The translations under genes and the position numbers were made by a program. The notes under the pieces were generated by a model. The model searched no databases and had not been told where the DNA came from. It saw nothing but the letters and a program-made list of their open reading frames with translations. DNA of 64,000 nt, taken from NCBI RefSeq assembly GCF_964275005.1, contig NC_092698.1:24353037-24417036 (forward strand). The letters run 5' to 3'. Source of the stretch: Diadema setosum. Lineage: Eukaryota. Shown here piece after piece: positions 11,259 through 34,662 of this stretch (position 1 is its first letter; every line of letters begins with the position of its first letter).

Positions 11259-12467
11259 TACAGTCCCTTTAAGAGTAAATATCATTTCTCATGCTTTCTC
11301 AAAGAAGTAAGGCAAGTGTTCTTTCATTATGCTGTAGAAGTGAGAATAATTGTGTTGAATTTTCTTTGTATTTCCTTTATATCGTTCTTAACATGTGACG
11401 TCACAAACGGTAGTCTCCTAATCAAGTGATGGCTGCACTAAAAACTAACCTTTAAACGGACTTGAAAGATTTCCCTCAAACTTCATGAACTTTCACTGAT
11501 GTGTTCTACTGATATTGCTATCATTCACTCAACCCACATTATTTTGCGTGACTTCTGAACGGAATTTGAGCAGATTGACCTCCATTGCAAATTTCAGGAC
11601 TGGAGTGAAATAAGTTCGTCGACTTAGATAATAGTAAGACGAAATACATTTAGACTTTCGTGTATTTTTATGATTTTGTATTTTTAACATAGTGTGTTTA
11701 TTCACAAATTTTATAATTTATTCACAAATTTTTTGGATTATGAGAAGACCAAAGAGGTTCTATTATGCAACCTCTTTGGAGAATACCACTGCAAATGGAA
11801 ATTGCAATTGGAAATTGCAGTGGTCTTCTCCAAATACAAAAACAACGATCAGTATGACGGTTATCTTGCCAATAGAGGGAGGCAAATTCATAAGACGTTG
11901 AACTACGGTTGCATCGCTGCATACCAATCATGTACTAGCGCTGCACAAGCAGCTCCCTAGACCACCCTAGACCTTTCTATGCACGGTAACGTGATGCAGC
12001 GGTATGGCGGTGGCTAATGACAACAAATGGATTTGGATTGGGAAAGTCCGAACATGAACAGACGATAAAAGCCCTTTGACACCGGACGTTTTGCAGTCTT
12101 AACTTTGTACTTTGATTTTTCTTTGTCGACAATGGGGTCTCAACATCATAAAAGGTCAGCTGTGTATAGTCAGAACACTTCTAAACCAACGAAGGCAAGT
12201 ATTTTCCTTACACTTTTATGAAAAATGCAAGACGTGAGGTGCCTTAGACCCATCCGTAGTGTTCGCTGCTGGTAAAATTTAAATAAGTTTTGATGTGTGT
12301 ATTACCTACATGTGTCCTACAGCATTTGTAGGCTGGAGGTCTAGTTCTAATCCTGTACCAAAGAGCTTATAAAGGAGAAAAATCTCTTTGTCCTGTACTC
12401 GTAGGCCTGTCACAATTTTCAGTTGACTGTGTACAAGGCAAGGGCAAGACATTTAAAGAGGCTGAAC

Positions 12468-12476
12468 AGTAGTAAA
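12468..12476. repeat. Left 9-bp target-site duplication GTAGTAAAC of the foldback element
   Basis: The exact 9-mer is repeated in direct orientation at 34591-34599, immediately outside the perfectly inverted termini ggtaggcacttaag / cttaagtgcctacc. Confidence 0.8.
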
Positions 12477-12677
12477 CGGTAGGCACTTAAGAGGCGAGAA
12501 TGCTCTGCGGGAAGTAGTTTCACCAAAGGTCACAGATATTAATTATTCATGAGCTGGCGCGGAGACTGCCGAAGCCTTATTGAATATGTATGAGGTGGGA
12601 GATTCCCTTTCCCCTGCGTTGTAAACGTACACCACCGAGTGAACGTCATGTAAACACATATCGCTTTCACAGTTGCA

Positions 12678-12726
<49 letters not shown>

Positions 12727-12999
12727 GTCTGTCTGTCACTCACTCGAGGAATGTCCATCGACGACTCACCCTTGTTGACATCCCACAGACTCTGTACAAA
12801 CATGGTTTGACGATGAGTTTGATCGTCATTGTGGTAAGGGGTGTCAAGATTTCTTCAAATAAATACTTTTAGTAACGTTAGGGCCTAACGTTAGTTGTTA
12901 TTCTTTTTTTTTGGGGGGGGGGGGGGTGGGTAAAATGGGCTAGATCAGAAAACACAGAAAAGTACACTCAATGAAATCAGTCATTCTTGGAAGTTCTAA

Positions 13000-15900
13000 T
13001 TGATTCGAAGTTCATCTCAATCAACCGTTAAAAATGACAAAAAGTGCACTTCTAATGCCTATGCGAATATTACGTAAAACGAGGCGACAGTAGAGTGTGG
13101 TGAGGCGACAGTAGAGTGCGGTTTGATCATATTGGTGAATTTACCGATGAACTTGAATTTTTAGCATTAATTATTTTTGGTAGAGTGACAAACAAAACCC
13201 TGGAGCCGAAACTCATGTCTTTTGATGTGATTCGATCGTTAAAAATGACAACATCTTAGTATTACGTGCTCTTCTAATGCCTATGCGTTATACACATAAA
13301 ACGAGGCGACAGTAGAGTGTGGTGAGGCGACAGTAGAGTGCGGTCTGGTCATATTGGTCAATTTACCGATGAAATTTAATTTTTAACATTCATTATTTTT
13401 AGTAGAGAGACAAACAAGGCACCTGGAGCCGAAACTCATGTCTTTTGATGTGTTTCGACCGTTAAAAATGACAACATCTTAGTATTAAGTGCTCTCCTAA
13501 TGCCTATGCGTTATACACATAAAACGAGGCGACAGTAGAGTGTGGTGAGGCGACAGTAGAGTGCGGTTCGGTCATATTGGTGAATTTACCGATGACCTTG
13601 AATTTTTAGCATTAATCATATTTAGTAGAGTGACAAACAAGGCACCTGGAGCCGAAAATCATGTCTTTTGATGTGTTTCGACCGTTAAAAATGACATCTT
13701 AGTATTAAGTGCTCTCCTAATACCTATGCGTTATACACATAAAACGAGGCGACAGTAGAGTGTGTTGAGGCGACAGTAGAGTGCGGTTCGGTCATATTGG
13801 TCAATTTACCGATGAACTTGAATTTTTAGCATTAATCATATTTAGTAGAGTGAAAAACAAGGCACCTGGAGCCGAAAATCATGTCTTTTGATGTGTTTCG
13901 ACCGTTAAAAATGACAACATCTTAGTATTAAGTGCTCTCCTAATGCCTATGCGTTATACACATAAAACGAGGCGACAGTAGAGTGTGGTGAGGCGACAGT
14001 AGAGTGCGGTTCGGTCATATTGGTGAATTTACCGATGAAATTGAATTTTTAACATTCATTATTTTTAGTAGAGTGACAAACAAGGCACCTGGAGCCGAAA
14101 ATCATGTCTTTTGATGTGTTTCGACCGTTAAAAATGACAACATCTTAGTATTAAGTGCTCTCCTAATGCCTATGCGTTATACACACAAAACGAGGCGACA
14201 GTAGAGTGTGGTGAGGCGACAGTAGAGTGCGGTCTGGTCATATTGGTCAATTTACCGATGAAATTCAATTTTTAACATTAATTATTTCTAGTATAGTGAC
14301 AAACAAAGCCCCTGGAGCCGAAACTCATGTCTTTTGATGTGATTCGACCGTTAAAAATGACAACATCTTAGTATTAAGTGCTCTTCCAATGCCTATGCGT
14401 TATACACATAAAACGAGGCGACAGTAGAGTGTGGTGAGGCGACAGTAGAGTGCGGTTCGGTCATATTGGTGAATTTACCGATGAAATTGAATTTTTAACA
14501 TTCATTATTTTTAGTAGAGTGACAAACAAGGCACCTGGAGCCGAAAATCATGTCTTTTGATGTGTTTCCACCGTTAAAAATGACAACATCTTAGTATTAA
14601 GTGCTCTCCTAATGCCTATGCGTTATACACACAAAACGAGGCGACAGTAGAGTGTGGTGAGGCGACAGTAGAGTGCGGTTTGGTCATATTGGTGAATTTA
14701 CCAATGAAATTCAATTTTTAACATTAATTATTTCTAGTATAGTGACAAACAAAGCCCCTGGAGCCGAAACTCATGTCTTTTGATGTGATTCGATCGTTAA
14801 AAATGACAACATCTTCGTATTAAGTGCTCTTCTAATGCCTATGCGTTATACACATAAAACGAGGCGACAGTAGAGTGTGGTGAGGCGACAGTAGAGTGCG
14901 GTTTGGTCATATTGGTGAATTTACCGATGAAATTGAATTTTTAACATTCATTATTTTTAGTAGAGTGACAAACAAGGCACCTGGAGCCGAAACTCATGTC
15001 TTTTGATGTGTTTCGACCGTTAAAAATGACAACATCTTAGTATTAAGTGCTCTCCTAATGCCTATGCGTTATACACATAAAACGAGGCGACAGTAGAGTG
15101 TGGTGAGGCGACAGTAGAGTGCGGTTTGGTCATATTGGTCAATTTACCGATGAACTTGAATTTTTAGCATTAATCATATTTAGTAGAGTGACAAACAAGG
15201 CACCTGGAGCCGAAAATCATGTCTTTTGATGTGTTTCCACCGTTAAAAATGACAACATCTTAGTATTAAGTGCTCTCCTAATGCCTATGCGTTATACACA
15301 CAAAACGAGGCGACAGTAGAGTGCGGTTTGGTCATATTGGTGAATTTACCAATGAAATTCAATTTTTAACATTAATTATTTCTAGTATAGTGACAAACAA
15401 AGCCCCTGGAGCCGAAACTCATGTCTTTTGATGTGATTCGACCGTTAAAAATGACAACATCTTAGTATTAAGTGCTCTTCCAATGCCTATGCGTTATACA
15501 CAATCATAAAACGAGGCGACAGTAGAGTGTGGTGAGGCGACAGTAGAGTGCGGTTTGGTCATATTGGTGAATTTACCGATGAAATTGAATTTTTAACATT
15601 CATTATTTTTAGTAGAGTGACAAACAAGGCACCTGGAGCCGAAACTCATGTCTTTTGATATGTTTCGACCGTTAAAAATGACAACATCTTAGTATTAAGT
15701 GCTCTCCTAATGCCTATGCGTTATACACATAAAACGAGGCGACAGTAGAGTGTGGTGAGGCGACAGTAGAGTGCGGTTTGGTCATATTGGTCAATTTACC
15801 GATGAACTTGAATTTTTAGCATTAATCATATTTAGTAGAGTGACAAACAAGGCACCTGGAGCCGAAAATCATGTCTTTTGATGTGTTTCCACCGTTAAAA

Positions 15901-18900
15901 ATGACAACATCTTAGTATTAAGTGCTCTCCTAATGCCTATGCGTTATACACACAAAACGAGGCGACAGTAGAGTGTGGTGAGGCGACAGTAGAGTGCGGT
16001 TTGGTCATATTGGTGAATTTACCAATGAAATTCAATTTTTAACATTAATTATTTCTAGTATAGTGACAAACAAAGCCCCTGGAGCCGAAACTCATGTCTT
16101 TTGATGTGATTCGACCGTTAAAAATGACAACATCTTAGTATTAAGTGCTCTTCCAATGCCTGTGCGTTATACACATAAAACGAGGCGACAGTAGAGTGTG
16201 GTGAGGCGACAGTAGAGTGCGGTTCGGTCATATTGGTGAATTTACCGATGAAATTGAATTTTTAACATTCATTATTTTTAGTAGAGTGACAAACAAGGCA
16301 CCTGGAGCCGAAAATCATGTCTTTTGATGTGTTTCCACCGTTAAAAATGACAACATCTTAGTATTAAGTGCTCTCCTAATGCCTATGCGTTATACACACA
16401 AAACGAGGCGACAGTAGAGTGTGGTGAGGCGACAGTAGAGTGCGGTTTGGTCATATTGGTGAATTTACCAATGAAATTCAATTTTTAACATTAATTATTT
16501 CTAGTATAGTGACAAACAAAGCCCCTGGAGCCGAAACTCATGTCTTTTGATGTGATTCGACCGTTAAAAATGACAACATCTTAGTATTAAGTGCTCATCT
16601 AATGCCTATGCGTTATACACATAAAACGAGGCGACAGTAGAGTGTGGTGAGGCGACAGTAGAGTGCGGTTTGGTCATATTGGTGAATTTACCGATGAAAT
16701 TGAATTTTTAACATTCATTATTTTTAGTAGAGTGACAAACAAGGCACCTGGAGCCGAAACTCATGTCTTTTGATGTGTTTCGACCGTTAAAAATGACAAC
16801 ATCTTAGTATAAAGTGCTCTCCTAATGCCTATGCGTTATACACATAAAACGAGGCGACAGTAGAGTGTGGTGAGGCGACAGTAGAGTGCGGTTTGGTCAT
16901 ATTGGTCAATTTACCGATGAACTTGAATTTTTAGCATTAATCATATTTAGTAGAGTGACAAACAAGGCACCTGGAGCCGAAAATCATGTCTTTTGATGTG
17001 TTTCCACCGTTAAAAATGACAACATCTTAGTATTAAGTGCTCTCCTAATGCCTATGCGTTATACACACAAAACGAGGCGACAGTAGAGTGTGGTGAGGCG
17101 ACAGTAGAGTGCGGTTTGGTCATATTGGTGAATTTACCAATGAAATTCAATTTTTAACATTAATTATTTCTAGTATAGTGACAAACAAAGCCCCTGGAGC
17201 CGAAACTCATGTCTTTTGATGTGATTCGACCGTTAAAAATGACAACATCTTAGTATTAAGTGCTCATCTAATGCCTATGCGTTATACACATAAAACGAGG
17301 AGACAGTAGAGTGTGGTGAGGCGACAGTAGAGTGCGGTTTGGTCATATTGGTGAATTTACCGATGAAATTGAATTTTTAACATTCATTATTTTTAGTAGA
17401 GTGACAAACAAGGCACCTGGAGCCGAAAATCATGTCTTTTGAAGTGTTTCGACCGTTAAAAATGACAACATCTTAGTATTAAGTGCTCTCCTAATGCCTA
17501 TGCGTTATGCACATAAAACGAGGCGACAGTAGAGTGTGGTGAGGCGACAGTAGAGTGCGGTTCGGTCATATTGGTGAATTTACCGATGAACTTGAATTTT
17601 TAGCATTAATCATATTTAGTAGAGTGACAAACAAGGCACCTGGAGCCGAAAATCATGTCTTTTGATGTGTTTCGACCGTTAAAAATGACAACATCTTAGT
17701 ATTACGTGCTCTTCTAATGCCTATGAGTTATACACATAAAACGAGGCGACAGTAGAGTGTGGTGAGGCGACAGTAGAGTGCGGTTTGGTCATATTGGTGA
17801 ATTTACCGATGAAATTGAATTTTTAACATTCATTATTTTTAGTAGAGTGACAAACAGGGCACCTGGAGCCGAAAATCATGTCTTTTGATGTGTTTCGACC
17901 GTTAAAAATGACAACATCTTAGTATTAAGTGCTCTCCTAATGCCTATGCGTTATGCACATAAAACGAGGCGACAGTAGAGTGTGGTGAGGCGACAGTAGA
18001 GTGCGGTTTGGTCATATTGGTGAATTTACCGATGAACTTGAATTTTTAGCATTAATCATATTTAGTAGAGTGACAAACAAGGCACCTGGAGCCGAAAATC
18101 ATGTCTTTTGATGTGTTTCGACCGTTAAAAATGACAACATCTTAGTATTACGTGCTCTTCTAATGCCCATGAGTTATACACATAAAACGAGGCGACAGTA
18201 GAGTGTGGTGAGGCGACAGTAGAGTGCGGTTCGGTGATATTGGTGAATTTACCGATGAACTTGAATTTTTAGCATTAATTATTTTTAGTAGAGTGACAAA
18301 CAAAAACCCTGGAGCCGAAACTCATGTCTTTTGATGTGATTCGACCGCTAAAAATGACAACATCTTAGTATTACGTGCTCTTCTAATGCCTATGCGTTAT
18401 ACACATAAAACGAGGCGACAGTAGAGTGTGGTGAGGCGACAGTAGAGTGCGGTTTGGTCATATTGGTGAATTTACCAATGAAATTCAATTTTTAGCATTA
18501 ATTATTTTTAGTAGAATGACAAACAAAGCCCCTGGAGCCGAAACTCATGTCTTTTGATGTGATTCGACCGTTAAAAATGACAACATCTTAGTATTAAGTG
18601 CTCATCTAATGCCTATGCGTTATACACATAAAACGAGGAGACAGTAGAGTGTGGTGAGGCGACAGTAGAGTGCGGTTTGGTCATATTGGTGAATTTACCG
18701 ATGAAATTGAATTTTTAACATTCATTATTTTTAGTAGAGTGACAAACAAGGCACCTGGAGCCGAAAATCATGTCTTTTGATGTGTTTCCACCGTTAAAAA
18801 TGACAACATCTTAGTATTAAGTGCTCTCCTAATGCCTATGCGTTATGCACATAAAACGAGGCGACAGTAGAGTGTGGTGAGGCGACAGTAGAGTGCGGTT

Positions 18901-19840
18901 TGGTCATATTGGTGAATTTACCGATGAACTTGAATTTTTAGCATTAATCATATTTAGTAGAGTGACAAACAAGGCACCTGGAGCCGAAAATCATGTCTTT
19001 TGATGTGTTTCGACCGTTAAAAATGACAACATCTTAGTATTACGTGCTCTTCTAATGCCTATGAGTTATACACATAAAACGAGGCGACAGTAGAGTGTGG
19101 TGAGGCGACAGTAGAGTGCGGTTCGGTCATATTGGTGAATTTACCGATGAACTTGAATTTTTAGCATTAATTATTTTTAGTAGAGTGACAAACAAAAACC
19201 CTGGAGCCGAAACTCATGTCTTTTGATGTGATTCGACCGCTAAAAATGACAACATCTTAGTATTACGTGCTCTTCTAATGCCTATGCGTTATACACATAA
19301 AACGAGGCGACAGTAGAGTGTGGTGAGGCGACAGTAGAGTGCGGTTTGGTCATATTGGTGAATTTACCAATGAAATTCAATTTTTAGCATTAATTATTTT
19401 TAGTAGAATGACAAACAAAGCCCCTGGAGCCGAAACTCATGTCTTTTGATGTGATTCGACCGTTAAAAATGACAACATCTTATAGTATTACGTGCTCTTC
19501 TATACAATGCCAATGCGTTATACACATAAAACGAGGCGACAGTATAGAGTGCGGTGAGGCGACAGTAGAGTGTGGTTTGGTCATCAGGGGCGGATCCAGG
19601 GAGGACCACAAACGGCGCACGCCCCCCCCCCCCCTTTATTTTTTGTTGAAACAAAAGAAATAAAAAGAAAATATGGGGGAGGGGTGCGTGCGCCCCCCTT
19701 CATTTTTGTAAACACGCCCCCTCTTTACGAAATTCCTGGATCCGCCTCTGGTCATATTGGTCAATTTACCAATGAACTTGAATTTTTAGCCTTAACTATT
19801 TTTTTGGTAGAGTGACAAACAAGGCACCTGGAGCTGTACC
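13000..19840 (+). repeat. Left-arm satellite array, ~222-bp monomer, about 30 copies, with 3-4-monomer higher-order repeats; interrupted by a MITE at 19563-19757
   Basis: The anchor aaaacgaggcgacag recurs at 13077, 13297, 13521, 13741, 13964..., a spacing of 220-224 bp. Each monomer has an internal 20-bp duplication gaggcgacagtagagtgyggt. Monomer variants alternate in a B-A-C or B-A-D-C pattern of about 670-890 bp. Confidence 0.95.
19563..19757. mobile_element. 195-bp hairpin MITE inserted into the innermost left-arm monomer
   Basis: It splits the monomer sequence gtttggtcat|...|ctggtcatattggtc. Termini caggggcggatccagg / cctggatccgcctctg are inverted. It has G/C homopolymer arms (ggcgcacgcccccccc ... 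gggggaggggtgcgtgcgcc). A related half copy sits at about 63437-63545. Confidence 0.7.
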
Positions 19841-21454
19841 GCCATAGGCCCTCCCGTAAAATTCATTGTTTCTCCGTGTCGTTTGTTACACCAGATTTGG
19901 TAGTAAAATATTAATATCTGAATGGTGCAAGTGATAAATGCTTCTTTGATGTTACTTTCGTGACATGGTATTTTGTAACCAAAAATTAAAAAGATAATAT
20001 TTCGTATTAGTAATGACAAGTTTATATCTAATTTAGATGTTAACAGAGATACTCAGATTGTTTTAGTTGTAGGTATATAGACATACAGGTAAAATGTTCG
20101 TCATAAATATCATCCTTTGTTGTTGTTGTTGCTGCTGTTTTTAACACCTAGTCTATAGTAAACTAGTAGTCCTCGACTAGGGGCTATTGATAATGGAAGC
20201 AGCTCAGCTCCACTTCCATCAAGCTTCCCGATTCCGATTTAGTGCTGTGCCGCCATGACCATTACGGTCGGCTCGGACCACAAAACATTTTTTGTTGGCC
20301 GGACGTGCGTTTTTGGTATATAGCCCCGTGCCACCGTTACTGTCAAGCCCTGGTTTATTAACCCATAGAAATGGGAAAAAAAATACAAAGAAAGAAAAGA
20401 ACGAAGAAAAGCAAGAATACAAAATATGTACAGCATGAGTGATTGCGTCAGAAGAGTATGCATGGAACTACCAGATAATATGCGACGACATTGATTGTGT
20501 TTGCGTGATGCAGAAAAGCACCTTATGATACGAAGATGAAAGGAGTTTTTGCTGAATAGCTCATATTATGTCTGTTCAATCATTACTCATGCCGGTTACA
20601 CTTTACAAACTCAACTGAGGAACGTCCTTAAAACACATGCAGTGTAATGAGAAGTCACAAACATAATCATTTCTTAAAGTCTGTTTTCTCTTTTATTTAC
20701 CCATTAGTTTTTCACCAAGGGATTAGCATCTGACATTCACTTCGTCTATCATCGTATAGCAATAAGGGTATTGCTTGTCTGAGAAGGAAAGACAGAAATA
20801 AAATAGCTATTGTTCGATTGTTCTCGTCCATTTTTTCGTGTGCATGTGATATCAATATGACCAGACTGTACATTTTGTTTATTATCACAGTCACACGAAT
20901 GGTCTGTCGAGATATGTTAACAAAATTAGGAGTTTGTATCATAATGTGAAAACAGACATGTCAATTTTTATCGAGATATCTCAGACAAAAGCTCATAAAA
21001 ATTACAATATAGATCTATATACAACATATAAATTATATATAATTATATTTATACAAATGTGGCAACATTGACAATATCTTTGAAAATATTTCGTGTTATG
21101 AAACGAGTGCATACTGTTGAATATCATTGAAAAGATCTTATTTTCTTTATTTCATAAAAATGGCCATACTTTACAAACTTTAGACTGATCAGATGCCGTA
21201 CTATCTTCTTTCAGCTGCATTCAAACTCTTGACGATATGGATCAGATATGACTGACAGGACAAGAAGGGATGAAAGGCTGAGAAAATAACAGCGTTGAAT
21301 GCTTCCCGCTCTTTTTTTCTTTTATAAAGAGTTTACAAATAAAAGTCATTTTCAAAGTTTTCTTCTTTAAGTAAGGTGGCTACATATAACATATAACATG
21401 TGTAGATCTTCGCAAACAGCCATCTGCCGACGAAGACTACATCTGTCCAGCATA

Positions 21455-21600
21455 CACACATAAAACGAGGCGACAGTAGAGTGCGGTTTGGTCATATTAA
21501 TCACTACCGATGAACTTGAATGTTTAGCATTAATTATTTGAGTAGAGTGACAAACAAAGCCCCTTGAGCCGAAACTTATGTCTTTTGACATGATTAAGCT
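21455..21600 (+). repeat. Solo, diverged partial satellite monomer inside the core region
   Basis: cacataaaacgaggcgacagtagagtgcggtttggtcatatt...gtgacaaacaaagccccttgagccgaaacttatgtcttttgac matches the arm monomer at about 85% identity and has only one copy of the 20-mer. Confidence 0.8.
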
Positions 21601-22182
21601 TATGTTAGTATAGAGCTCTGCAATAACATCTATGTTAACTTGTACATCTCCATCCAATCATGCAACTTTTTTTAAACTAAACAATATTTTAAGACCTCTG
21701 CAGTAATTTCTGTATGTAAACTTCTGAGAGGGAAAGGACAAGATGCGCTCACAAGAAATTTCACCGACAGTGTAAATTTGTTGGTTCACAGCTCTGCTGG
21801 GTATATAGGCAAGGTTTATTTTTATTCCCAACAGAAGAGGGCAGATCAAGACCTGTTATAGTGTCAAAGACAAATGAAAATTATACATTGTTGTATAATG
21901 GTTTTAAATACACCACCATTATAAGAAAGATATTTTCTACTTAACCTAGTATACCATTTTGCATTACACAGTATGTACTAATTTAATCATGTAAAGCACA
22001 TATAGATTCCAGGAATAGTATGCGCTATATAAGCAGCTATCATTATTATTATTAGTAGTAGCAGCATGGCTTGTTTCTTACTTTCATAGTATTACTATAT
22101 ACAGGTTTCTTTTCTTCATCTTTATATTACATTCTAAAAGTACAGTGTGCAGAGACACGCAGAGGAAAAGTTAGAAAGAGAA

Positions 22183-22232
22183 GAAGAAGAAGAAGAAGAA
22201 GAAGAAGAAGAAGAAGAAGAAGGGGGGGGGGG
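22183..22232. repeat. (GAA)16 microsatellite; a (GA)n tract follows at about 22400-22472
   Basis: Direct reading. Confidence 0.9.
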
Positions 22233-22429
22233 GATAGAATGTACATTAGCATCCTACTAACAAGTCAGCTCCCACGTACTATAGATAAACGATTAGACTA
22301 CTATCCAGAACCTTGTTGCTTATTGTGTATCATAGTAGCTCAATTCCTTGGTCACTCACTATCCTATACCGATGCAAGGAAACAGAGGGAGAGAGATGGG
22401 AGATAGGAAGAGGAAGACAGAGAGAGAGA

Positions 22430-22467
<38 letters not shown>

Positions 22468-23824
22468 GAGCAGCAAATCAAGGGCTATTAAAGTCTGAAT
22501 ACATTAAGACTACTACTTTAAACTGCTGCTGCTGCTGAAGCCGGATAGTACAAGCAGAGGAGTGCCTTATCTGAGGATCTGTTCCCCCTTTCCCTCTTTC
22601 TGGAGTGGGGGACACAGTGATTTCCTGCAATATCGACTCCAGACGCAGGTCGGCAACACGGGAGATATTGTGTGTTATACTATAGAATCAACGAATGGTG
22701 AGTAGAAGGATATATTATTCTCTACTCTCTATTAACTATCATCCTGCTCCGAAATCCCTTCAAGTTAGTGATTTGGATAGTTGCTAAAATTGCTCAGACA
22801 CAACATCTCAGCATTACTGCTCTCAATGAAGTTGTAAAGGCAAATTGCAGAGGGGCATTCTTGCCCTCTTGACACACAACTTACTGAAGTGGTAGAGAAG
22901 TTAAGACGAGAGACAAAAGCAGACAAAAGAGGGGGGACAAGGGTGGGGGTAGAGAGAAGGAAAGAAAAGGAGAGACAGTGAGAGAGAAGCAGGAAACCGA
23001 GGATGCCTTGTAAATGAGGCAACACATATAATATTAAGTCAAACAGTAACTTCCCATGTGTAAATACTCTTAACTTTGATGTTCCCACCAGTCTACATAC
23101 ACAGCCCAATCTTGTCGATTGTATAATGCATGCACTCAATAAGCCCATACTTGACAATGTTACAGCATGCACCATACCCTCACGCTTTCACCAACTCCAT
23201 CCAGCCCAAGGAGGTACTAGGCGAGCCTAGTACCTCCTTGTCCAGCCTAGCACCTCTGCATCTAGCCTTGCAACCTTTTTTTCCCTTTCCTAAACCCATA
23301 CCAGCATTAGAGCTCTGCAGTCACATCTCTGCATCAACTCCATCCAGTCTTGCACTTTTAGTATTTGCGCTCCACAGAAATGTCTCTTTGTTAGCTTGCT
23401 CCAACTTCGAGGTTTGTACCTCTTTTTTATATTAATCGAAATATATATCAACACATACATTCATACAAACATATACACACACACACATACACATATTTGC
23501 GTGTATTTCGTGCTAACCTGGGACTTACACACTGAAATGAAATTTGTGTGTGTGTGTGTGAACGAGTTTGATAATCAACCGTGGACGTTACAAGGAGGGG
23601 TGTATGCTAAATTTTGTGATATCTGAATGTGCTTTGTATGCAAAGATATTGCAATTTGAAACCATTTGTGCATGTCCAAGAATTGGGGAGTGTCCCCGGT
23701 TGTGGTGCGCATCTGTAATGTGAATGTAGGATGTCAAGTTTACATTCCCTCTGAAGGGGAAATGTATGCCCACACACATATACACACACACATTATATTT
23801 ACATATAAAAAAGTTGCATGGAAA

Positions 23825-23864
<40 letters not shown>

Positions 23865-25077
23865 GATTAAAGATTATACAGTGTCCCAGAAGAAACAAAA
23901 CCAGGTTTCGATGCAACTTTTTATTACTGAAATCATACATTTTCTTTATGAGATATATATCAATGGAAAGATAAACTTTTTCTTCTTTCATTTGATGTAC
24001 AACTTAATGTTCATTGTTTATGCATGACTGAGTTAGAACGATGAGAAGTGGTGCTACCAAATTATCATTTGCACATGCAAATGGTGACTTAAAGTTAATT
24101 TTTCAGACTTTTAACGTTACGTTTGCAAAAAACAAGGTTCATAACCCAAATATTCATATTTTCTTCTTTCATATGAGACCTTACACATCAAATATGAATG
24201 ATGCATGCTTGAGAAAAATTTGTATGCAAGCATGCTTCATTTCTACCAATTCTACAGATAGTCGAAGAAAAGCATTCAGCTCTCCCGACTTAGCATTAGA
24301 CAATGGGCTCATCTGTACCATTGAATTCACACAAAACAACTGTAGTGAGCACTACAGTGAATGTTGGTGGGGGGGGGGGGTATTTACAGAGAATGCTGTA
24401 TGAGACGGACAGGCCTTTGTTGTCATTTATTTAGAATAAGCTATGAGACATAACCAAAATCATTGAAGACTAATATCGTGAGTATACTCGGGCTGCACGC
24501 AGTCCATTGGCTATCGGAAATCAACTTTACAACAATGATACACATTTTGATGATTTTGTATCCCAAATCTATGTCACTGTTTTCATTCCTTTCTATATTT
24601 CCCTCACGTGTGGTTAGTCCTTCATTCTTGACAGGGTTTAGACGTTTAGTCGGGCAGGCATCGGGAATGTTAACTGCTCCTTTATCTATTATCTATCTAT
24701 CTGGGTAAAATGTACAGATATTTTCAAATTGAGTTTTATCGAGCAGGTGTTGATAATTTTTTTACGCATGGGATATCATATGAAAGGAAAAAGAATGGAT
24801 ATTAAAGCTATTATTTTACTTTTTTGCAAAAGATTGCTTAAAAAGTCTGAAGAAATCATTCAAAGTCGCCATTTGCTCATGCAAATGAAAATTTTATAGT
24901 ATCAATGTCTACTGTTCTTAGTCATGCATGAATTATGAACGTGTTGTGTATCAAATGAAAGAAGAGAAGTGTAGCTTTCAACCCATGTACATCTCATAGA
25001 GCAAATAATATATGATTAAAATCAGCAGAGAATTGCAATGAAACTCGGTTTCGTTTTTTCTTGGACACGCTGTACAT

Positions 25078-25078
25078 A

Positions 25079-25127
<49 letters not shown>
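25078..25127. repeat. (CA)25 microsatellite
   Basis: Direct reading. Confidence 0.95.
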
Positions 25128-25130
<3 letters not shown>

Positions 25131-27461
25131 TAATACATAAAATGGCTCATTTCAATTTGTAACCTTTGAGGAAAACATGGTATTAGATTGTACTCTAATT
25201 TCATATACATACATAGTGACCCAGAAAAGCGGTCTAAAACCGGTGTAGTTGTCAAGGACTGTTTTTGCAATGAATTGTGTCAGTCGATGAGTTAACATCT
25301 TCTGAGGAAAATGATACCGAGTGCAAATTGGGTTGAGTAGCTTTCGCACACACACATACCTACCAACATCAAAATCTAGACAATCTGAAAAAAGTTGTAT
25401 ACATGTACATGTATATTGAAAACATTTTCAACAATATGAACATTCATTGATTTACATACTTTCTAATGCAAGATACATCTGCATGTGCAACTTAAAAGAA
25501 GGCTCCTTCGTTCCATTCCAAATCTGTTCTGATTAACACATTAATATCAACCTTTACAAAATATCAACACAGAAGAGGGAAAATACAATTTTTGTCGTAG
25601 GTTCAGATGAGTTCTTTCATATGTAAAAAAAAAAAAAATGCAGAAAAAGATCAATAAGATAGCTGGCCTGATAAATTGCCACAGATCTAATGAAATAATT
25701 TGTAATATCTTTTTTCATTCCATCTCTGAATAGTGACTTGCATTTGTAATACATGTATGTCCCAAGATCCATAGATATGGAATATTAAAACAATTACACA
25801 GTTTGCCAGCATGGAAGTGAAAGCATGTATATCTTTTTGCAAGTTACAATCTGTATGATGCACATCTGTTTCATTTACATATGTATACCTATGTTTATTT
25901 TCCGTAACTTTGGCAGGTATATGCAAAGTGATCAAACACACACATTAAAATAAAGAATGCATGCCCAAAATGCATACACCCAATTCTACCAATCAGAGGT
26001 GGATTTCAAGTAGGATGATTCATTCTGTCTATAAAAAAAAAAAAAAAAAAAAAATCTAACAGTAGGCTAGCCAGTGCATTATGAATTAGGTCTTGGTCAT
26101 AATGGACTTGAGCATAATGAAAGAAACAAATATCGAAGTCATCCATATTGCTTTATGAACTGATACTGACTCCCTCAAATCTAAAAAGGAAATTAAATAT
26201 ATGTATGCATGTACATGCCAAAATTAGGATTTAGCGGTACTTCCTGATGATGGAAAAAAAAAATTACGTAAGCCAAGATCAATAAGATATGTAATGACAT
26301 CTGGGCATTGTTCCATCAAACCCATATATTAAAGAAAAACAAATAGATATCAGTTTCATTTACTTTATTTCAGTTTTGAATCTCACTTTTATGATTGGTT
26401 GGATTTAATCAAATAGGTTTAATAAGTGGCACTAATTACCAACTGCCATGAACATCATCATTTTCTTTAAAGGCCGCCTGCAAACATGAAGATAAGTAAA
26501 GAAACTATGCATGAATGAATATCACCTGTTAAATGTAATGTGTGGGAAATCTTATGCTCACACCATCAGATTATTCGTTGCAAAACGGATTAATCAGCAG
26601 TCAAGAGTGTGTGTTACACTACTCACACTAATAATGATTTTGAAAAAAAAAAATAATTACTGTATTAGAACAACATTGCATTTCACCTAAATAGATTCAC
26701 ATATTTGAACCAATGGTTAAACAAACGAGATTATAAGGAAAAAAACGGGGGTTCAATCTTGTCAGTATTAAAACTGAGAATTCTTTGCAATTTGTACAAT
26801 TATACAGGTGTTGAAAATGTTAACTCATTCATTTACATAACCTGCATAAATGATACACTTGTACTTTAGAAATTCTCCAAAGTTTCAATTTTGTTAGCAT
26901 TCTCTGAAATTGAATCAAATGTTCTGTGATTTCCAGATTTCCCAGATATGATGTACCTTTGTGGTTGTTCAATAAAACAAGTGTACAATGATCAGCCAAC
27001 ATCTTGAAACTATTAACATTTTGATCAACAACAAAACTTAATTGATATTTCTGTTTTTCTTGCTGTTATACCTTGAGGTGCATTACTAACATTTGACTAG
27101 AATGGTGTGTAAGAGTTCAGATACAATAAGTTAGTTCATTCCTTTAAGAAGTCAGGATGCTGAGATTTGGATAAAGAATCCATTCCAAGTTCCAAATCTG
27201 CACCATTTCTTTGAAGTAAGAATGGGCAATTTGTCTAACACATTAGCAAAGCACCAGTATATAGTATAAAGGTCCATTTGAACTTTGTTGACACGAGTTC
27301 ACTTACAGCAAACCCATTGGCGTCACCCGGAATTTTCAAGGGGAGGGGGTTCATTCATAAGGAAAACTGACCTTTCCCTGCAGCCAGCACCGAGAAACGC
27401 AAAAAAAGGGGGTGCTTACCAGCCACCAGCGGAAGCTGACAAGCAAAAAATAAGAAATAGA

Positions 27462-28466
27462 TAAAACTAGAAATGTCGCTATGGCGACTGGTATGCCTCC
27501 GCCATAATGCATGATTCTCCTAATAGGTCGAGATAGTACATGTGGACAATGTGTGATTACATTTTCACAAAATTGGCAAAATATTAAACTGACAAGTTTG
27601 TCACAAATGTGTTGAATGTTCACCTTCCTTGACCTAGGTTTAATTGGATGAATAGGAGAGCATGTATTTGGAATTTAAGGACTTTAACTTGACTTTAGCC
27701 CATTCATACGTTCATGCATTGAGTAATTTTCAAGGTATGGAGAAAATGTGAAATTTCTGTATTGAATAGTAAATTGTTACCATTTTCATCTGGCCTTTGA
27801 CCGTAAAATTCTAAGTTTTAAGATAACTCGAGCCACTTCCGAGATATGGAGGAAATAGTTAGTTCAGCACTTTGACTTGATCTTTGACCTTTTGACCTTT
27901 GAGGCAAAAAAAAAAAAGGGAAAAAAAAAACTTTCCAGAGAGTCTCTATTAGGTTATACATGCATACACCAAGTGTAAAAAAAAATAAAATAATCCTGCT
28001 GGCATGGCATAACCATGATAGAAATAGTAAAATTTTGAAGTGTTGCCCTTGATCTTTGACCCCTGACCAGTGAGTACATGTATGTTCCATGAAGATACCT
28101 CAAACAATTTCCAGGGCACGGAGAAAAAAGTGGAGTTTTAATATCTTTACTTGACCTTTTGACCTTTGACCTCATGACCCCAAACTTTCACCAGAGACTC
28201 TTAATAGGGTAATACATGTATACACTAACTTTCAAGATAATATCATCATGCATTGTTGACCTTGAGCATTTGCACCCAAAAATTGGTAGGCACAACTTCA
28301 CCCCCTAATACACATACATGCCAAGTTTCATAAGGGTACCTCAAAAGGTTTCTTAGTTACGCTGTCCACAAAATTCAAAACGGTCGGACGGAAGGACAGA
28401 CGGACGGACGGACAACCTGAAAACATAATGCCTCCGGCACAACTTTGTAGCGGAGGCATAAAAAGT
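27462..28466 (-). mobile_element. Modular TIR element 'GGAGGCAT family' (about 1.0 kb), minus-strand copy
   Basis: Its reverse complement begins tttttatgcctccgctacaaagttgtgccggaggcattatgttttc, followed by gtccgtccg repeats, and ends gcattatggcggaggcataccagtcgccatagcgacatttctagtttta. This matches the copy at 41600-42979. Internal units are rich in tgacctttgacc motifs. Confidence 0.75.
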
Positions 28467-28823
28467 TTACGGGGAGCATGAAAGACAACGGACAACAAAT
28501 GGCAATAGCTTACTGTCTTGAGCCTTTGGATCATGTGAGTTAAAAGTACCTCAATGGCAAGAATTGATAATGTAGAATAAAATTCCTTCCCATTCCTTGT
28601 GGCACATTGGACAAGCCTATTTCGTTTTCTTGGTCACACTGCCGCAAATTGCAGTGAAAGCCAAAAAGTCAAGATTGTAATTGCCTCCCCCCGCCCTAAA
28701 AAAAAAAAAAAAAAACATGTTTTGCAAGTCCGAAATGGCCATATGACATTACTAGGCAATGACCTGAAATAGATCAACACTCTTTGCACTGTTCCCCTCA
28801 ATGGCACTGTGCATGGCATATAC

Positions 28824-31800
28824 TGTCGCCTCACCACACTCTACTGTCGCCTCGTTTTGTGTGTAACGCATAGGCATTAGAAGAGCACTCAATACTAAGA
28901 TGTTGTCATTTTTAACGATCGAATCACATCAAAAGACATGAGTTTTGGCTCCAGGGGCTTTGTTTGTCACTCTACTAGAAATAATTAATGTTAAAAATTG
29001 AATTTCATTGGTAAATTGACCTATATGACCAAACCGCACTCTACTGTCGCCTCACCACACTCTACTGTCGCCTCGTTTTATGTGTATAACGCATAGGCAT
29101 TAGAAGAGCTCGTAATACTAAGATGTTGTCATTTTTAACGATCGAATCACATCAAAAGACATGAGTTTCGGCTCCAGGGGCTTTGATTGTCACTCTCTTT
29201 ACATAATTAATGTTAAAAATTCAAGTTCATCGGTAAATTCACCAATATGATCAAACCGCACTCTACTGTCGCCTCACCACACTCTACTGTCGCCTCGTTT
29301 TATGTGTATAACGCATAGGCATTAGATGAGCACTTAATACTAAGATGTTGTCATTTTTAACGATCGAATCACATCAAAAGACATGAGTTTTGGCTCCAGG
29401 GGCTTTGTTTGTCACTCTACTAGAAATAATTAATGTTAAAAATTGAATTTCATTGGTAAATTGACCAATATGACCAAACCGCACTCTACTGTCGCCTCAC
29501 CACACTCTACTGTCGCCTCGTTTTATGTGTATATAACGCATAGGCATTAGAAGAGCACTTAATACTAAGATGTTGTCATTTTTAACGATCGAATTACATC
29601 AAAAGACATGAGTTTCGGCTCCAGGGGCTTTGCTTGTCACTCTACTAAAAATAATTAATGTTAAAAATTCAAATTCATCGGTAAATTCACCAATATGATC
29701 AAACCGCACTCTACTGTCGCCTCACCACACTCTACTGTCGCCTCGTTTTATGTGTATAACGCATAGGCATTAGAAGAGCACTCAATACTAAGATGTTGTC
29801 ATTTTTAACGGTCGAATCACATCAAAAGGCATGAGTTTCGGCTCCAGGGGCTTTGCTTGTCACTCTACTAGAAATAATTAATGCTAAACATTCAAGTTCA
29901 TCGGTAAATTCACCAATATGACCAAACCGCACTCTACTGTCGCCTCACCACACTCTACTGTCTCCTCGTTTTATGTGTATAACGCATAGGCATTAGATGA
30001 GCACTTAATACTAAGATGTTGTCATTTTTAACGATCGAATCACATCAAAAGACATGAGTTTCGGCTCCAGGGGCTTTGTTTGTCACTCTACTAGAAATAA
30101 TTAATGTTAAAAATTGAATTTCATTGGTAAATTGACCAATATGACCAAACCGCACTCTACTGTCGCCTCACCACACTCTACTGTCGCCTCGTTTTATGTG
30201 TATAACGCATAGGCATTAGAAGAGCACTTAATACTAAGATGTTGTCATTTTTAACGATCGAATTACATCAAAAGACATGAGTTTCGGCTCCAGGGGCTTT
30301 GCTTGTCACTCTACTAGAAATAATTAATGTTAAAAATTGAATTTCATTGGTAAATTCACCAATATGACCAAACCGCACTCTACTGTCGCCTCACCACACT
30401 CTACTGTCGCCTCGTTTTATGTGTATAACGCATAGGCATTAGAAGAGCACTCAATACTAAGATGTTGTCATTTTTAACGGTCGAATCACATCAAAAGACA
30501 TGAGTTTCGGCTCCAGGTGCTTTGCTTGTCACTCTACTAGAAATAATTAATGTTAAAAATTGAATTTCATTGGTAAATTGACCAATATGACCAAACCGCA
30601 CTCTACTGTCGCCTCACCACACTCTACTGTCGCCTCGTTTTATGTGTATAACGCATAGGCATTAGATGAGCACTTAATACTAAGATGTTGTCATTTTTAA
30701 CGATCGAATCACATCAAAAGACATGAGTTTCGGCTCCAGGGGCTTTGTTTGTCACTCTCTTTACATAATTAATGTTAAAAATTCAAGTTCATCGGTTATT
30801 CACCAATAATGATCAAACCGCACTCTACTGTCGCCTCACCACACTCTACTGTCTCCTCGTTTTATGTGTATAACGCATAGGCATTAGATGAGCACTTAAT
30901 ACTAAGATGTTGTCATTTTTAACGATCGAATCACATCAAAAGACATGAGTTTCGGCTCCAGGGGCTTTGTTTGTCACTCTACTAGAAATAATTAATGTTA
31001 AAAATTGAATTTCATTGGTAAATTGACCAATATGACCAAACCGCACTCTACTGTCGCCTCACCACACTCTACTGTCGCCTCGTTTTATGTGTATAACGCA
31101 TAGGCATTAGAAGAGCACTTAATACTAAGATGTTGTCATTTTTAACGATCGAATTACATCAAAAGACATGAGTTTCGGCTCCAGGGGCTTTGCTTGTCAC
31201 TCTACTAAAAATAATTAATGTTAAAAATTCAAATTCATCGGTAAATTCACCAATATGATCAAACCGCACTCTACTGTCGCCTCACCACACTCTACTATCG
31301 CCTCGTTTTATGTGTATAACGCATAGGCATTAGAAGAGCACTCAATACTAAGATGTTGTCATTTTTAACGGTCGAATCACATCAAAAGGCATGAGTTTCG
31401 GTTCCAGGGGCTTTGCTTGTCACTCTACTAGAAATAATTAATGTTAAAAATTGAATTTCATTGGTAAATTCACCAATATGACCAAACCGCACTCTACTGT
31501 CGCCTCACCACACTCTACTGTCGCCTCGTTTTATGTGTATAACGCATAGGCATTAGAAGAGCACGTAATACTAAGATGTTGTCATTTTTAACGATCGAAT
31601 CACATCAAAAGACATGAGTTTCGGCTCCAGGTGCTTTGCTTGTCACTCTACTAAAAATAATTAATGTTAAAAATTCAAGTTCATCGGTAAATTCACCAAT
31701 ATGATCAAACCGCACTCTACTGTCGCCTCACCACACTCTACTGTCGCCTCGTTTTATGGGTATAACGCATAGGCATTAGAAGAGCACTCAATACTAAGAT

Positions 31801-34050
31801 GTTGTCATTTTTAACGGTCGAATCACATCAAAAGGCATGAGTTTCGGCTCCAGGGGCTTTGCTTGTCACTCTACTAGAAATAATTAATGCTAAACATTCA
31901 AGTTCATCGGTAAATTCACCAATATGACCAAACCGCACTCTACTGTCGCCTCACCACACTCTACTGTCTCCTCGTTTTATGTGTATAACGCATAGGCATT
32001 AGATGAGCACTTAATACTAAGATGTTGTCATTTTTAACTATCGAATCACATCAAAAGACATGAGTTTCGGCTCCAGGGGCTTTGTTTGTCACTCTACTAG
32101 AAATAATTAATGTTAAAAATTGAATTTCATTGGTAAATTGACCAATATGACCAAACCGCACTCTACTGTCGCCTCACCACACTCTACTGTCGCCTCGTTT
32201 TATGTGTATAACGCATAGGCATTAGAAGAGCACTTAATACTAAGATGTTGTCATTTTTAACGATCGAATTACATCAAAAGACATGAGTTTCGGCTCCAGG
32301 GGCTTTGCTTGTCACTCTACTAAAAATAATTAATGTTAAAAATTCAAGTTCATCGGTAAATTCACCAATATGATCAAACCGCACTCTACTGTCGCCTCAC
32401 CACACTCTACTGTCGCCTCGTTTTATGTGTATAACGCATAGGCATTAGAAGAGCACTCAATACTAAGATGTTGTCATTTTTAACGGTCGAATCACATCAA
32501 AAGGCATGAGTTTCGGCTCCAGGGGCTTTGCTTGTCACTCTACTAGAAATAATTAATGTTAAAAATTGAATTTCATTGGTAAATTCACCAATATGATCAA
32601 ACCGCACTCTACTGTCGCCTCACCACACTCTACTGTCGCCTCGTTTTATGGGTATAACGCATAGGCATTAGAAGAGCACTCAATACTAAGATGTTGTCAT
32701 TTTTAACGGTCGAATCACATCAAAAGGCATGAGTTTCGGCTCCAGGGGCTTTGCTTGTCACTCTACTAGAAATAATTAATGCTAAACATTCAAGTTCATC
32801 GGTAAATTCACCAATATGACCAAACCGCACTCTACTGTCGCCTCACCACACTCTACTGTCTCCTCGTTTTATGTGTATAACGCATAGGCATTAGATGAGC
32901 ACTTAATACTAAGATGTTGTCATTTTTAACTATCGAATCACATCAAAAGACATGAGTTTCGGCTCCAGGGGCTTTGTTTGTCACTCTACTAGAAATAATT
33001 AATGTTAAAAATTGAATTTCATTGGTAAATTGACCAATATGACCAAACCGCACTCTACTGTCGCCTCACCACACTCTACTGTCGCCTCGTTTTATGTGTA
33101 TAACGCATAGGCATTAGAAGAGCACTTAATACTAAGATGTTGTCATTTTTAACGATCGAATTACATCAAAAGACATGAGTTTCGGCTCCAGGGGCTTTGC
33201 TTGTCACTCTACTAAAAATAATTAATGTTAAAAATTCAAGTTCATCGGTAAATTCACCAATATGATCAAACCGCACTCTACTGTCGCCTCACCACACTCT
33301 ACTGTCGCCTCGTTTTATGTGTATAACGCATAGGCATTAGAAGAGCACTCAATACTAAGATGTTGTCATTTTTAACGGTCGAATCACATCAAAAGGCATG
33401 AGTTTCGGCTCCAGGGGCTTTGCTTGTCACTCTACTAGAAATAATTAATGTTAAAAATTGAATTTCATTGGTAAATTCACCAATATGACCAAACCGCACT
33501 CTACTGTCGCCTCACCACACTCTACTGTCGCCTCGTTTTGTGTGTAACGCATAGTCATTAGAAGAGCACTCAATACTAAGATGTTGTCATTTTTAACAAT
33601 CGAATCACATCAAAAGACATGAATTTTGGCTCCAGGGGCTTTGTTTGTCACTCTACTAAAAATAATTAATGCTAAACATTCAAGTTCATCGGTAAATTCA
33701 CCAATATGACCAAACCGCACTCTACTGTCGCCTCACCACACTCTACTGTCGCCTCGTTTTATGTGTATAACGCATAGGCATTAGAAGAGCACTTAATACT
33801 AAGATGTTGTCATTTTTAACGATCGAATCACATCAAAAGACATGAGTTTCGGTTCCAGGGGCTTTGCTTGTCACTCTACTAAAAATAATTAATGTTAAAA
33901 ATTGAATTTCATCGGTGAATTCACCAATATGACCAAACCGCACTCTACTGTCGCCTCACCACACTCTACTGTCGCCTCGTTTTACGTAATATTCGCATAG
34001 GCATTAGAAGTGCACTTTTTGTCATTTTTAACGGTTGATTGACATGAACT
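28824..34050 (-). repeat. Right-arm satellite array, the same ~222-bp monomer in reverse orientation, about 23 copies
   Basis: The reverse complement of the left-arm monomer (ctgtcgcctcaccacactctactgtcgcctcgttttatgtgtataacgcataggcattag...) is repeated at a period of about 222 bp. The copy number is lower than in the left arm, and the inner breakpoint falls at a different monomer phase. Confidence 0.95.
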
Positions 34051-34327
34051 TCGAATCAATTAGAACTTCCAAGAATGACTGATTACATTGAGTGTACTCT
34101 TCTGTGTTTTCTGATCTAGCCCATTTTACCCACCCCCCCCCCAAAAAAAGGAATAACAACTAACGTTAGGCCCTAACGTTACTAAAAGTATTTATTTGAA
34201 GAAATCTTGACACCCCTTACCACAATGACGATCAAACTCATCGTCAAACCATGTTTGTACAGAGTCTGTGGGATGTCAACAAGGGTGAGTCGTCGATGGA
34301 CATTTCTCGAGTGAGTGACAGACAGAC

Positions 34328-34390
<63 letters not shown>

Positions 34391-34590
34391 TGCAACTGTG
34401 AAAGCGATATGTGTTTACATGACGTTCACTCGGTGGTGTACGTTTACAACGCAGGGGAAAGGGAATCTCCCACCTCATACATATTCAATAAGGCTTCGGC
34501 AGTCTCCGCGCCAGCTCATGAATAATTAATATCTGTGACCTTTGGTGAAACTACTTCCCGCAGAGCATTCTCGCCTCTTAAGTGCCTACC

Positions 34591-34599
34591 GTAGTAAAC
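34591..34599. repeat. Right 9-bp target-site duplication GTAGTAAAC
   Basis: Identical to 12468-12476. Flanking sequence beyond it does not continue the inverted repeat. Confidence 0.8.
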
Positions 34600-34662
34600 A
34601 CCGAGTAGGCCTACAGTTGAGTAGGCCCTAATTTAACTTAGACACAGTGACGGACAGTTCTA

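Follow-up and report, generated by a model that had tools for sequence, protein, structure and literature searches.

The term foldback denotes a structural class of transposon and not a lineage (PMC3169594, PMC4079207). Tetris, described from Drosophila virilis and D. americana, consists of a flanking domain, ~220-bp repeats and a non-coding middle within 8–10 bp target-site duplications, and its arrays, whose repeats are ~94% similar to one another, expand inside the element toward satellite-like arrays (PMC4079207). In Tribolium, Rehavkus-like elements contain as many as 50 monomers in succession, with repeats that evolve in concert and inverted termini exceeding 11 kb (bioRxiv 10.1101/2024.12.02.626372). 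Tm1 of root-knot nematodes combines foldback-like inverted repeats and 9-bp duplications with a Phantom-type transposase (PMC3169594). Duplications of Mutator-like elements (MULEs) are typically 8–11 bp long, and those of Rehavkus and Phantom ~9 bp (PMC6446971). In Galileo, the tandem repeats of the arms have been shown experimentally to hold secondary transposase-binding sites (PMC3688188). Among sea urchins, the TU elements of Strongylocentrotus purpuratus are described as having modular long inverted repeats with outer domains and tandemly repeated inner domains (Liebermann et al., 1983, cited in PMC4079207).

Here we analyze a window of 64,000 nucleotides from Diadema setosum (contig NC_092698.1), in which a non-coding element of 22,113 bp occupies positions 12478–34590 (Table 1). 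We consider it very probable that it is a single inserted class II (cut-and-paste) DNA transposon, non-autonomous and of foldback type. Its 30-nt terminus GGTAGGCACTTAAGAGGCGAGAATGCTCTG was found, with 3 mismatches allowed, at the two ends and nowhere else, one copy being inverted relative to the other (0 occurrences expected from shuffled sequences), and the outermost 203 nt of the arms match at 100% identity, in agreement with the exactly complementary termini reported in the first-pass annotation. Directly abutting both termini is the 9-mer GTAGTAAAC, which occurs twice in the 64 kb, both times at an element end, while its reverse complement is absent from the window; the repeat is direct and not inverted, as had been claimed. 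The right copy stands where it was originally placed, and the left copy required a shift of 1 nt (from 12468–12476 to 12469–12477), so that the element starts at 12478. The earlier statement that a 9/9 chance match would be very unlikely was borne out by a computed probability of 6.2e-6 for a match at two abutting positions, given the base composition of the window. No larger local duplication was found around the 9-mers: the bases just outside them differ, and the two 1-kb flanks have no mutual similarity. The inverted repeat can be extended by 2 nt (AC/GT) into the 9-mer by chance, which leaves the 9-nt direct repeat unaffected. The nearest repeat to the insertion site is a hairpin MITE starting ~52 nt beyond the right duplication, and relative to an ASC/ENaC-type channel gene the element lies upstream, ~3.7 kb from the first exon.

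Table 1. Features of the foldback-type element and its flanks (positions in the 64,000-nt window).
Feature	Position	Strand	Description
Left target-site duplication	12469..12477	none	GTAGTAAAC; adjoins left terminus; 1 of only 2 copies in the window
Left outer (unique) domain	12478..13020	+	Starts GGTAGGCACTTAAGAGGCGAGAATGCTCTG; (GT)n tract from 12681; T/G homopolymer run
Left array	13021..19584	+	29 copies of 223-bp unit; arm-specific higher-order blocks
Nested MITE	19585..19750	none	166 bp, inside last left monomer; TIR CAGGGGCGGATCCAGG (15/16)
Remainder of MITE-interrupted monomer	19751..19834	+	Left array stops at unit position 166
Non-repeat sequence	19835..21452	none	1.6 kb between left array and relic monomer; no Pfam matches
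Relic monomer fragment	21453..21595	+ (left-arm orientation)	~87% identical to unit; one core-motif copy intact
Asymmetric non-coding middle domain	21596..28820	none	Microsatellites and dispersed-repeat piece
Right array	28821..34017	-	23 copies of 223-bp unit; inner end at unit position 72
Right outer domain	34018..34590	-	Ends ...CAGAGCATTCTCGCCTCTTAAGTGCCTACC; (AC)29 tract at 34330-34387
Right target-site duplication	34591..34599	none	GTAGTAAAC; adjoins right terminus

The first-pass annotation had described two multi-kb arms in opposite orientation, each with an outer unique domain and inner tandem repeats of unequal copy number, and this architecture was verified. The arms, about 7.4 kb and 5.8 kb long, make up most of the 22.1-kb element and contain 29 and 23 copies of the repeat unit, respectively. 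Tandem Repeats Finder (TRF) called the left array at 13042–19584 (29.4 copies, 93% matches) and the right array at 28821–34017 (23.3 copies, 94% matches). The outer domains measure about 543–573 nt and, over ~565 nt, are ~99% identical to each other in inverted orientation, differing by 5 substitutions and by length changes in the (GT)n tract and the T/G homopolymer run. No significant similarity between outer domain and 223-bp unit was detected except in the last ~20 nt of the left domain. For Tetris, the repeat unit has been proposed to derive from the outer domain; such an origin is not supported here, with local alignments other than this ~20-nt boundary overlap falling within the range of shuffled sequences. 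Rfam and tRNA scans, which could have revealed a SINE or RNA-gene ancestry of the unit, returned nothing.

Comparison of the individual monomers showed that the nearest relative of each lies in the same arm, the sole exception being the outermost pair (L0/R0). A twin in the same arm at an identity of at least 99.5% was found for 11 of the 29 left monomers and 11 of the 23 right monomers, and the highest identity between arms was 97.8%. Because the closest relative of each monomer sits in its own arm, the arrays have expanded separately within each arm, and this growth is recorded by arm-specific higher-order blocks and by neighboring monomers that are 100% identical. The same comparison rejected mirror symmetry of the arrays, the pattern that a recent inverted duplication or a palindromic artefact should leave.

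Variation within the unit is unevenly distributed. A 47-nt core containing two GAGGCGACAGTAGAGTG motifs is ~10-fold less variable than the remaining unit, with variable sites at 3/47 positions in the core vs 62/176 elsewhere (Fisher p = 5e-5) and nucleotide diversity (pi) of 0.006 vs 0.069. The motifs recur ~100 times in the arms, and the core motif is intact in the relic monomer as well. Nearly invariant and present twice per unit, GAGGCGACAGTAGAGTG is, by analogy with Galileo, a candidate transposase-binding motif. The low variability of the core could instead stem from the mode of array homogenization and not from selection, because the monomers are not independent samples. A 7-mer, GAGGCGA, is common to the terminus and the core motif, possibly by chance (roughly p = 0.06, an estimate).

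Between the arms, the middle of the element was found to be non-coding: no ORF exceeds 140 aa, and a six-frame Pfam search of the element center, with stops masked as X, recovered zero families at E ≤ 1. Pfam searches of all stop-free segments of at least 70 aa outside the element likewise found no transposase domain in the window; FLYWCH and MULE domains were absent from the scans of element and window, and THAP domains from that of the element center. The middle contains a ~1-kb dispersed-repeat piece (27461–28464) that is also present outside the element at 41600–42979. The MITE nested in the left arm is flanked by its own 5-bp target-site duplication, GTCAT, at 19580–19584 and 19751–19755, and the other monomers serve as paralogous uninterrupted sites for this insertion.

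Further copies and empty sites were searched for at several levels. Within the window, 30-nt and 17-nt terminal queries with 3 mismatches allowed recovered the two element ends only, and when the outer domain and the monomer were compared by BLAST with the remaining window sequence, all matches were to microsatellites. The terminal 24-mer and a 38-nt conserved core were absent from a metagenome contig collection and a viral contig collection, the 38-nt core was absent from a prokaryotic-genome contig collection, and no paper containing the terminal or core sequences was found in the published literature. The reconstructed pre-insertion site, ...GGCTGAACAGTAGTAAACACCGAGTAGG..., had no other match within the 64-kb window. 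Neighboring exons were used to look for an orthologous empty site; the best database matches were 66% and 56% identical for the ASC exon, on environmental or Logan contigs, and 60% identical for a RING exon, so that the protein database does not represent the host species. The structural evidence comes from a single copy, with neither a second insertion bearing a different duplication nor an empty allele among the searches made; since the evidence is one copy, mobility of the element is inferred from its structure.

Of the described systems, Tetris shares with the D. setosum element a unique terminal domain of several hundred bp followed in each arm by variable ~220-bp repeats, a variable non-coding middle, and the lack of a transposase. 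However, Tetris repeats are ~70% AT vs 62% here, and its arrays are much shorter, with a few repeats and TIRs of up to 1.7 kb in the three copies that are structurally complete. Identity with Tetris was rejected: none of the four published Tetris primers matches the window, even with 3 mismatches allowed, and the two elements are alike in architecture but not in sequence. The likeness to Rehavkus is also architectural: the defining feature of Rehavkus is a PHD-finger transposase, whereas the element here has none. These systems do temper two earlier claims, that the tandem unit (~222 bp) is unusually long and that the element is very large. Both were overstated, given the ~220-bp repeats in Tetris arms (PMC4079207) and the inverted termini of more than 11 kb in Tribolium Rehavkus-like elements (bioRxiv 10.1101/2024.12.02.626372).

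FB-NOF, Phantom MULEs and Tm1 resemble the element in having inverted arms of composite build that contain tandem repeats, and duplications of 9 bp. Most of their copies are likewise non-autonomous. The arm repeats are much shorter in these systems, 13–15 bp in Tm1 and 10–31 bp in FB vs 223 bp here, and no FLYWCH or MULE domain accompanies the D. setosum element. The Tm1 terminal motif CCTACCC resembles the element end CCTACC out of register only, probably by chance. TU elements are alike by description in their modular inverted repeats with outer and inner tandem domains; they have short repeat units and 8-bp duplications. Galileo, of the P superfamily in Drosophila, also has long, internally repetitive inverted arms, but it encodes a THAP-domain P-like transposase, and duplications are 7 bp for Galileo and 8 bp for P. 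With a 9-bp duplication and no THAP or transposase domain found, the element does not fit Galileo or the P superfamily. The hAT superfamily, characterized by 8-bp duplications and short inverted repeats, does not match a 9-bp duplication and arms of several kb.

As no transposase was found, the superfamily is suggested by duplication length and architecture, which point to a Mutator-like enzyme (MULE, Phantom/FB-NOF or Rehavkus type) acting in trans. The 9-bp duplication falls within the 8–11 bp (typically 9) of Mutator elements. Autonomous members encode a DDE transposase of MULE type, some with a FLYWCH, SWIM or PHD finger and some with none; no such enzyme was found here, as expected for a non-autonomous copy, and this result neither supports nor excludes the superfamily. 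Merlin elements have duplications of 8–9 bp, and the enzyme may be of Merlin type in place of Mutator. The foldback identity proposed in the first-pass annotation holds for the structural class, all cited structural hallmarks of which were verified; membership of the Drosophila FB or sea-urchin TU lineage is left unsupported because the element has no transposase.

In the mechanism that we propose, a transposase supplied by another genomic locus would have recognized the two identical termini, and may also have bound the GAGGCGACAGTAGAGTG motifs in the arms. The element would then have been excised and inserted at a 9-bp staggered cut, repair of which would have produced the flanking GTAGTAAAC duplication. 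It was probably smaller at that time. The 223-bp arrays have since been enlarged and reshuffled separately in each arm, by unequal exchange or segmental duplication, and at least one MITE has landed inside the element. Arm-specific array expansion and nested insertions probably made much of the 22 kb; therefore, the element may not have transposed at that size.

A different history, in which two inverted one-armed or foldback-type elements captured ~7–9 kb of host DNA and mobilized it as cargo, has a parallel in the FB-flanked giant transposons of Drosophila. The middle is indeed asymmetric, non-coding and like ordinary intergenic DNA, and part of it is a dispersed repeat with a further occurrence outside the element. 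However, each flank is a single arm with one unit orientation and not a complete two-armed foldback element, and a variable non-coding middle is normal for foldback elements (PMC4079207), which makes a composite origin unlikely. The composite and single-element models predict identical junctions, and the difference between them is largely one of wording.

Explanations that do not involve transposition fare worse. An inverted duplication of a satellite array and its unique edge by replication or repair error, next to a coincidental 9-mer, would be compatible with the single known copy and the asymmetric inner ends of the arms. Yet the arms stop at exactly the same nucleotide with a 9/9 direct repeat adjoining (chance about 6e-6), a fold-back duplication makes no flanking direct repeats, and the flanks share no wider duplication; we regard this origin as very improbable. 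Long inverted tandem arrays are difficult to assemble, and a chimeric palindromic long read or mis-joined satellite contigs could have created a false inverted repeat. This is hardly credible for arms that are not mirror copies but differ in monomer number, order and variants, with a unique and asymmetric 9-kb center, a nested MITE in one arm, and unique flanks bearing a precise duplication; a palindrome from a missed adapter would be symmetric about one point.

A single foldback-type insertion thus remains our preferred reading. A bolder version of it, to which we give a small chance, places the element at the start of a foldback lineage that has not been described before, or among its very few members, in an animal group with sparse sampling. 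On this view it would have been caught partway from transposon to satellite, its arm repeats multiplying independently in each arm and its 47-nt double motif staying invariant as a transposase-binding array. The transposase might then be non-Mutator, and free satellite arrays of the 223-bp unit might exist elsewhere in the genome.

The element cleanly exemplifies a known kind and does not constitute a new one, and it leaves transposon biology as known unchanged; neither its 223-bp unit nor its size is unprecedented, because Tetris and the Tribolium Rehavkus-like elements are close architectural precedents. Its limits as a foldback-type insertion are clear: the termini are intact, the duplication is perfect, and the arrays in the two arms reach satellite size. 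For annotation, it supplies the termini and a consensus unit for a family that automated pipelines would probably break up into “satellite” and “unknown.” Inverted repeats of 6–7 kb such as these could act as hotspots at which hairpins, deletions and inversions arise, and the element as a whole is an example of transposon-arm tandem repeats growing in place into satellite-like arrays.

The 9-mer GTAGTAAAC abuts both ends of the element as a direct repeat, at 12469-12477 and 34591-34599 (both junctions were read and script-checked), and has no further copies on either strand of the window. The first-pass annotation had proposed a 22-kb foldback-type transposon flanked by this 9-bp target-site duplication; its right-hand copy was correctly placed, but the left-hand copy, given as 12468-12476, was off by 1 nt, and the element extends from 12478 to 34590 (22,113 bp). 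Under the base composition of the window, a 9/9 match at two abutting positions has a probability of p = 6.2e-6. Because the bases adjoining the two 9-mers differ and no similarity was found between the left and right 1-kb flanks, the 9-mer is not the edge of a larger local duplication, a possibility that the first-pass annotation had itself raised against its reading. The termini are also exactly complementary, as had been claimed: global alignment of the left end with the reverse complement of the right end gave 203 identical terminal nucleotides, and a window search for the terminal 30-mer GGTAGGCACTTAAGAGGCGAGAATGCTCTG allowing up to 3 mismatches recovered only the two element ends, in inverted orientation (none expected from shuffles). 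Across the entire outer domains, the distal ~565 nt of each arm, identity between arms is 99%, with 5 substitutions in all; a (GT)n tract and a T/G homopolymer run also vary in length between the arms.

Internal to the outer domains, Tandem Repeats Finder identified two arrays with a 223-bp period, and an inverted-repeat scan recovered the same two arms. The outer domain is unique sequence, sharing just its final ~20 nt with the 3′ end of the 223-bp unit; other local alignments between the two scored no better than shuffles. The arms are thus modular and differ in copy number, in line with the original description. Their inner ends are asymmetric: the right array ends at unit position 72 (at 28821), and the last left monomer is broken by a nested MITE, resumes, and ends at unit position 166 (at 19834). 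The other ~50 monomers represent uninterrupted "empty" sites for this MITE, which has a weak relative at 63473-63530 (80% identity over 59 nt). Beyond the left array lie 1.6 kb of unrelated sequence and then a relic monomer fragment (21453-21595, ~87% identical to the unit). The longest open reading frames in the centre, the region between the arrays, are ≤140 aa. An inverted pair in the centre (23881-24132 and 24820-25068, ~250 nt, ~73% identical), adjoining an (AC)n tract at 25080-25125, may mark where an old nested element begins and ends. The dispersed repeat in the centre (27461-28464) is 78-88% identical to its copy outside the element, which has the opposite orientation and lies next to a (TCCGTACGTACC)n minisatellite and a tandem repeat of 151 bp (41654-42187).

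Features of the element and its surroundings (window coordinates)
Feature	Position	Strand	Details
ASC/DEG-ENaC channel N-terminal exon	8397-8804	-	Pfam PF00858, E 1e-20; ~3.7 kb from the element's left end
Left array, 223-bp period	13042-19584	opposite to right array	Tandem Repeats Finder, 29.4 copies, 93% matches
Nested MITE	19585-19750		166 bp; TIR CAGGGGCGGATCCAGG (15/16 complementary); TSD GTCAT, 5 bp, 19580-19584 and 19751-19755
Rest of centre	21596-28820		microsatellites and ~1 kb of a dispersed repeat also at 41600-42979
Right array, 223-bp period	28821-34017	opposite to left array	Tandem Repeats Finder, 23.3 copies, 94% matches
RING-like stretch	38016-38240	+	judged by eye; without Pfam match
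RING-H2 finger exon	60923-61276	+	weak Pfam match, under curated cut-off

Both arrays were cut into monomers in register and all pairs were compared. No diagonal stood out in the left-versus-right identity matrix, and the arrays are not mirror images. The nearest relative of each monomer lies in the same arm, with the sole exception of the outermost left and right monomers, which are mutual best matches at 95.5%. Of the 29 left and 23 right monomers, 11 on each side have a twin at ≥99.5% identity within the same arm, forming arm-specific blocks of 3-4 units, and the top identity between arms (97.8%) is below the 99% of the outer domains. Each arm's array was therefore enlarged and rearranged on its own, once the two arms had ceased to have a sequence in common. 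This counts against a palindrome introduced during assembly, an explanation that the centre, being unique and asymmetric, and the nested MITE also contradict. The growth may have preceded or followed insertion at this site; together with the nested MITE, it suggests that the inserting element was likely smaller than 22 kb.

An inverted duplication of non-transpositional origin could place two arms in opposite orientation, but leaves their identical end points and the abutting 9/9 direct repeat unaccounted for. A composite, in which two elements carry host DNA between them, is hard to distinguish from a foldback element whose middle varies, and is disfavoured because each flank consists of a single arm in one orientation. 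Exact terminal inverted repeats, an abutting 9-bp direct repeat and unduplicated wider flanks are together the signature of cut-and-paste integration, in which a DDE-type transposase would make a 9-bp staggered cut, and the structure of this single copy argues strongly for mobility.

No transposase was detected in the window. The centre (19585-28823; six-frame translations, stop codons masked) matched no Pfam family at E≤1, and among stop-free segments of ≥70 aa outside the element only two families were matched, an ASC/ENaC channel exon and a RING finger exon. The element is therefore regarded as non-autonomous. Our preferred candidate for moving the element in trans is an enzyme of the Mutator superfamily, with chances roughly balanced, on the basis of the 9-bp duplication and foldback-like arms. 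Duplications of 8-11 bp are characteristic of MULEs, with ~9 bp in Rehavkus and Phantom (PMC6446971); Tm1 combines foldback-like arms and 9-bp duplications with a Phantom-type transposase (PMC3169594), and Tetris was placed provisionally in Mutator by its authors on the same reasoning (PMC4079207).

Several superfamilies have given rise to the structure called "foldback" (PMC3169594, PMC4079207), and every structural foldback feature that could be tested was found here. With termini, duplication and modular arms verified, the evidence supports the initial reading of a foldback-type transposon with satellite-like arms, here a non-autonomous DNA element of a known kind, the class being structural and not an assignment to the FB, TU or Rehavkus lineage. 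The closest architectural match is Tetris, with a flanking domain of ≤866 bp, ~220-bp repeats, a non-coding middle, 8-10 bp duplications and arrays expanding inside the element (PMC4079207). Sequence kinship with Tetris was rejected; its primers are absent from the window. Tribolium elements of the Rehavkus and Rehavkus-like type pair 9-bp duplications with inverted termini of >11 kb, and their variable subterminal satellite repeats comprise ≤50 monomers (PMC6446971; bioRxiv 10.1101/2024.12.02.626372). Given these comparable elements, neither the unit length, first judged unusually long, nor the size, first judged very large, is unprecedented. Separate array growth in each arm has likewise been reported in Tetris and in Rehavkus-associated satellites.

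No other terminus and no paralogue of the reconstructed pre-insertion site ...AAAGAGGCTGAACAGTAGTAAACACCGAGTAGGCCTACAG... (with a single GTAGTAAAC) were found in the window. Exact-match scans of metagenome, prokaryotic-genome and viral collections gave no hits, the terminal and core sequences had no match in the literature, and Rfam and tRNA scans were empty. The element probably sits between two divergently oriented genes; best database matches of the flanking exons reach only 56-66% identity. A hairpin (self-complementary) MITE-like family of ~385 bp occurs at 10890-11272, 59794-60180 and, split by a ~755-bp interruption (34825-35578), at 34651-34824 and 35579-35771 (copies 92-94% identical); the split copy starts ~52 nt past the right duplication. 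Sequences at 50945-51540, 61892-62080 and 62337-62546, whose translations have in common such strings as DPNPLGMLPAKF..ENGSWG..EEDENV and GPPWGPLGGAWCPF, are probably several copies of another dispersed repeat family in the window's right third. A 192-bp tandem repeat at 54625-55149 (2.7 copies, 95% matches) is unrelated to the 223-bp unit.

The consensus 223-bp unit (38% GC) contains an internal tandem duplication, ACGAGGCGACAGTAGAGTGTGG then TGAGGCGACAGTAGAGTGCGG. Among 34 distinct 223-nt monomers, this 47-nt core has 3 variable sites versus 62 in the other 176 positions, with pairwise diversity of 0.006 versus 0.069 (Fisher's exact p = 5e-5, for monomers that are non-independent, being related by recent duplication). 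Copies of the 17-mer core motif GAGGCGACAGTAGAGTG number 57 in the left arm (plus strand) and 42 in the right arm (minus strand), with no further ones; one survives intact even in the relic monomer. Each terminus also carries the core 7-mer GAGGCGA, identically oriented, at nt 14-20, which is only a lead (some shared 7-mer by chance, p ~0.06, a rough estimate). Galileo arm repeats were shown to hold secondary THAP-binding sites (PMC3688188), and by analogy the core may be a reiterated candidate transposase-binding site. The element is chiefly of value because it cleanly illustrates repeat arrays growing inside transposon arms and supplies a testable candidate binding motif.
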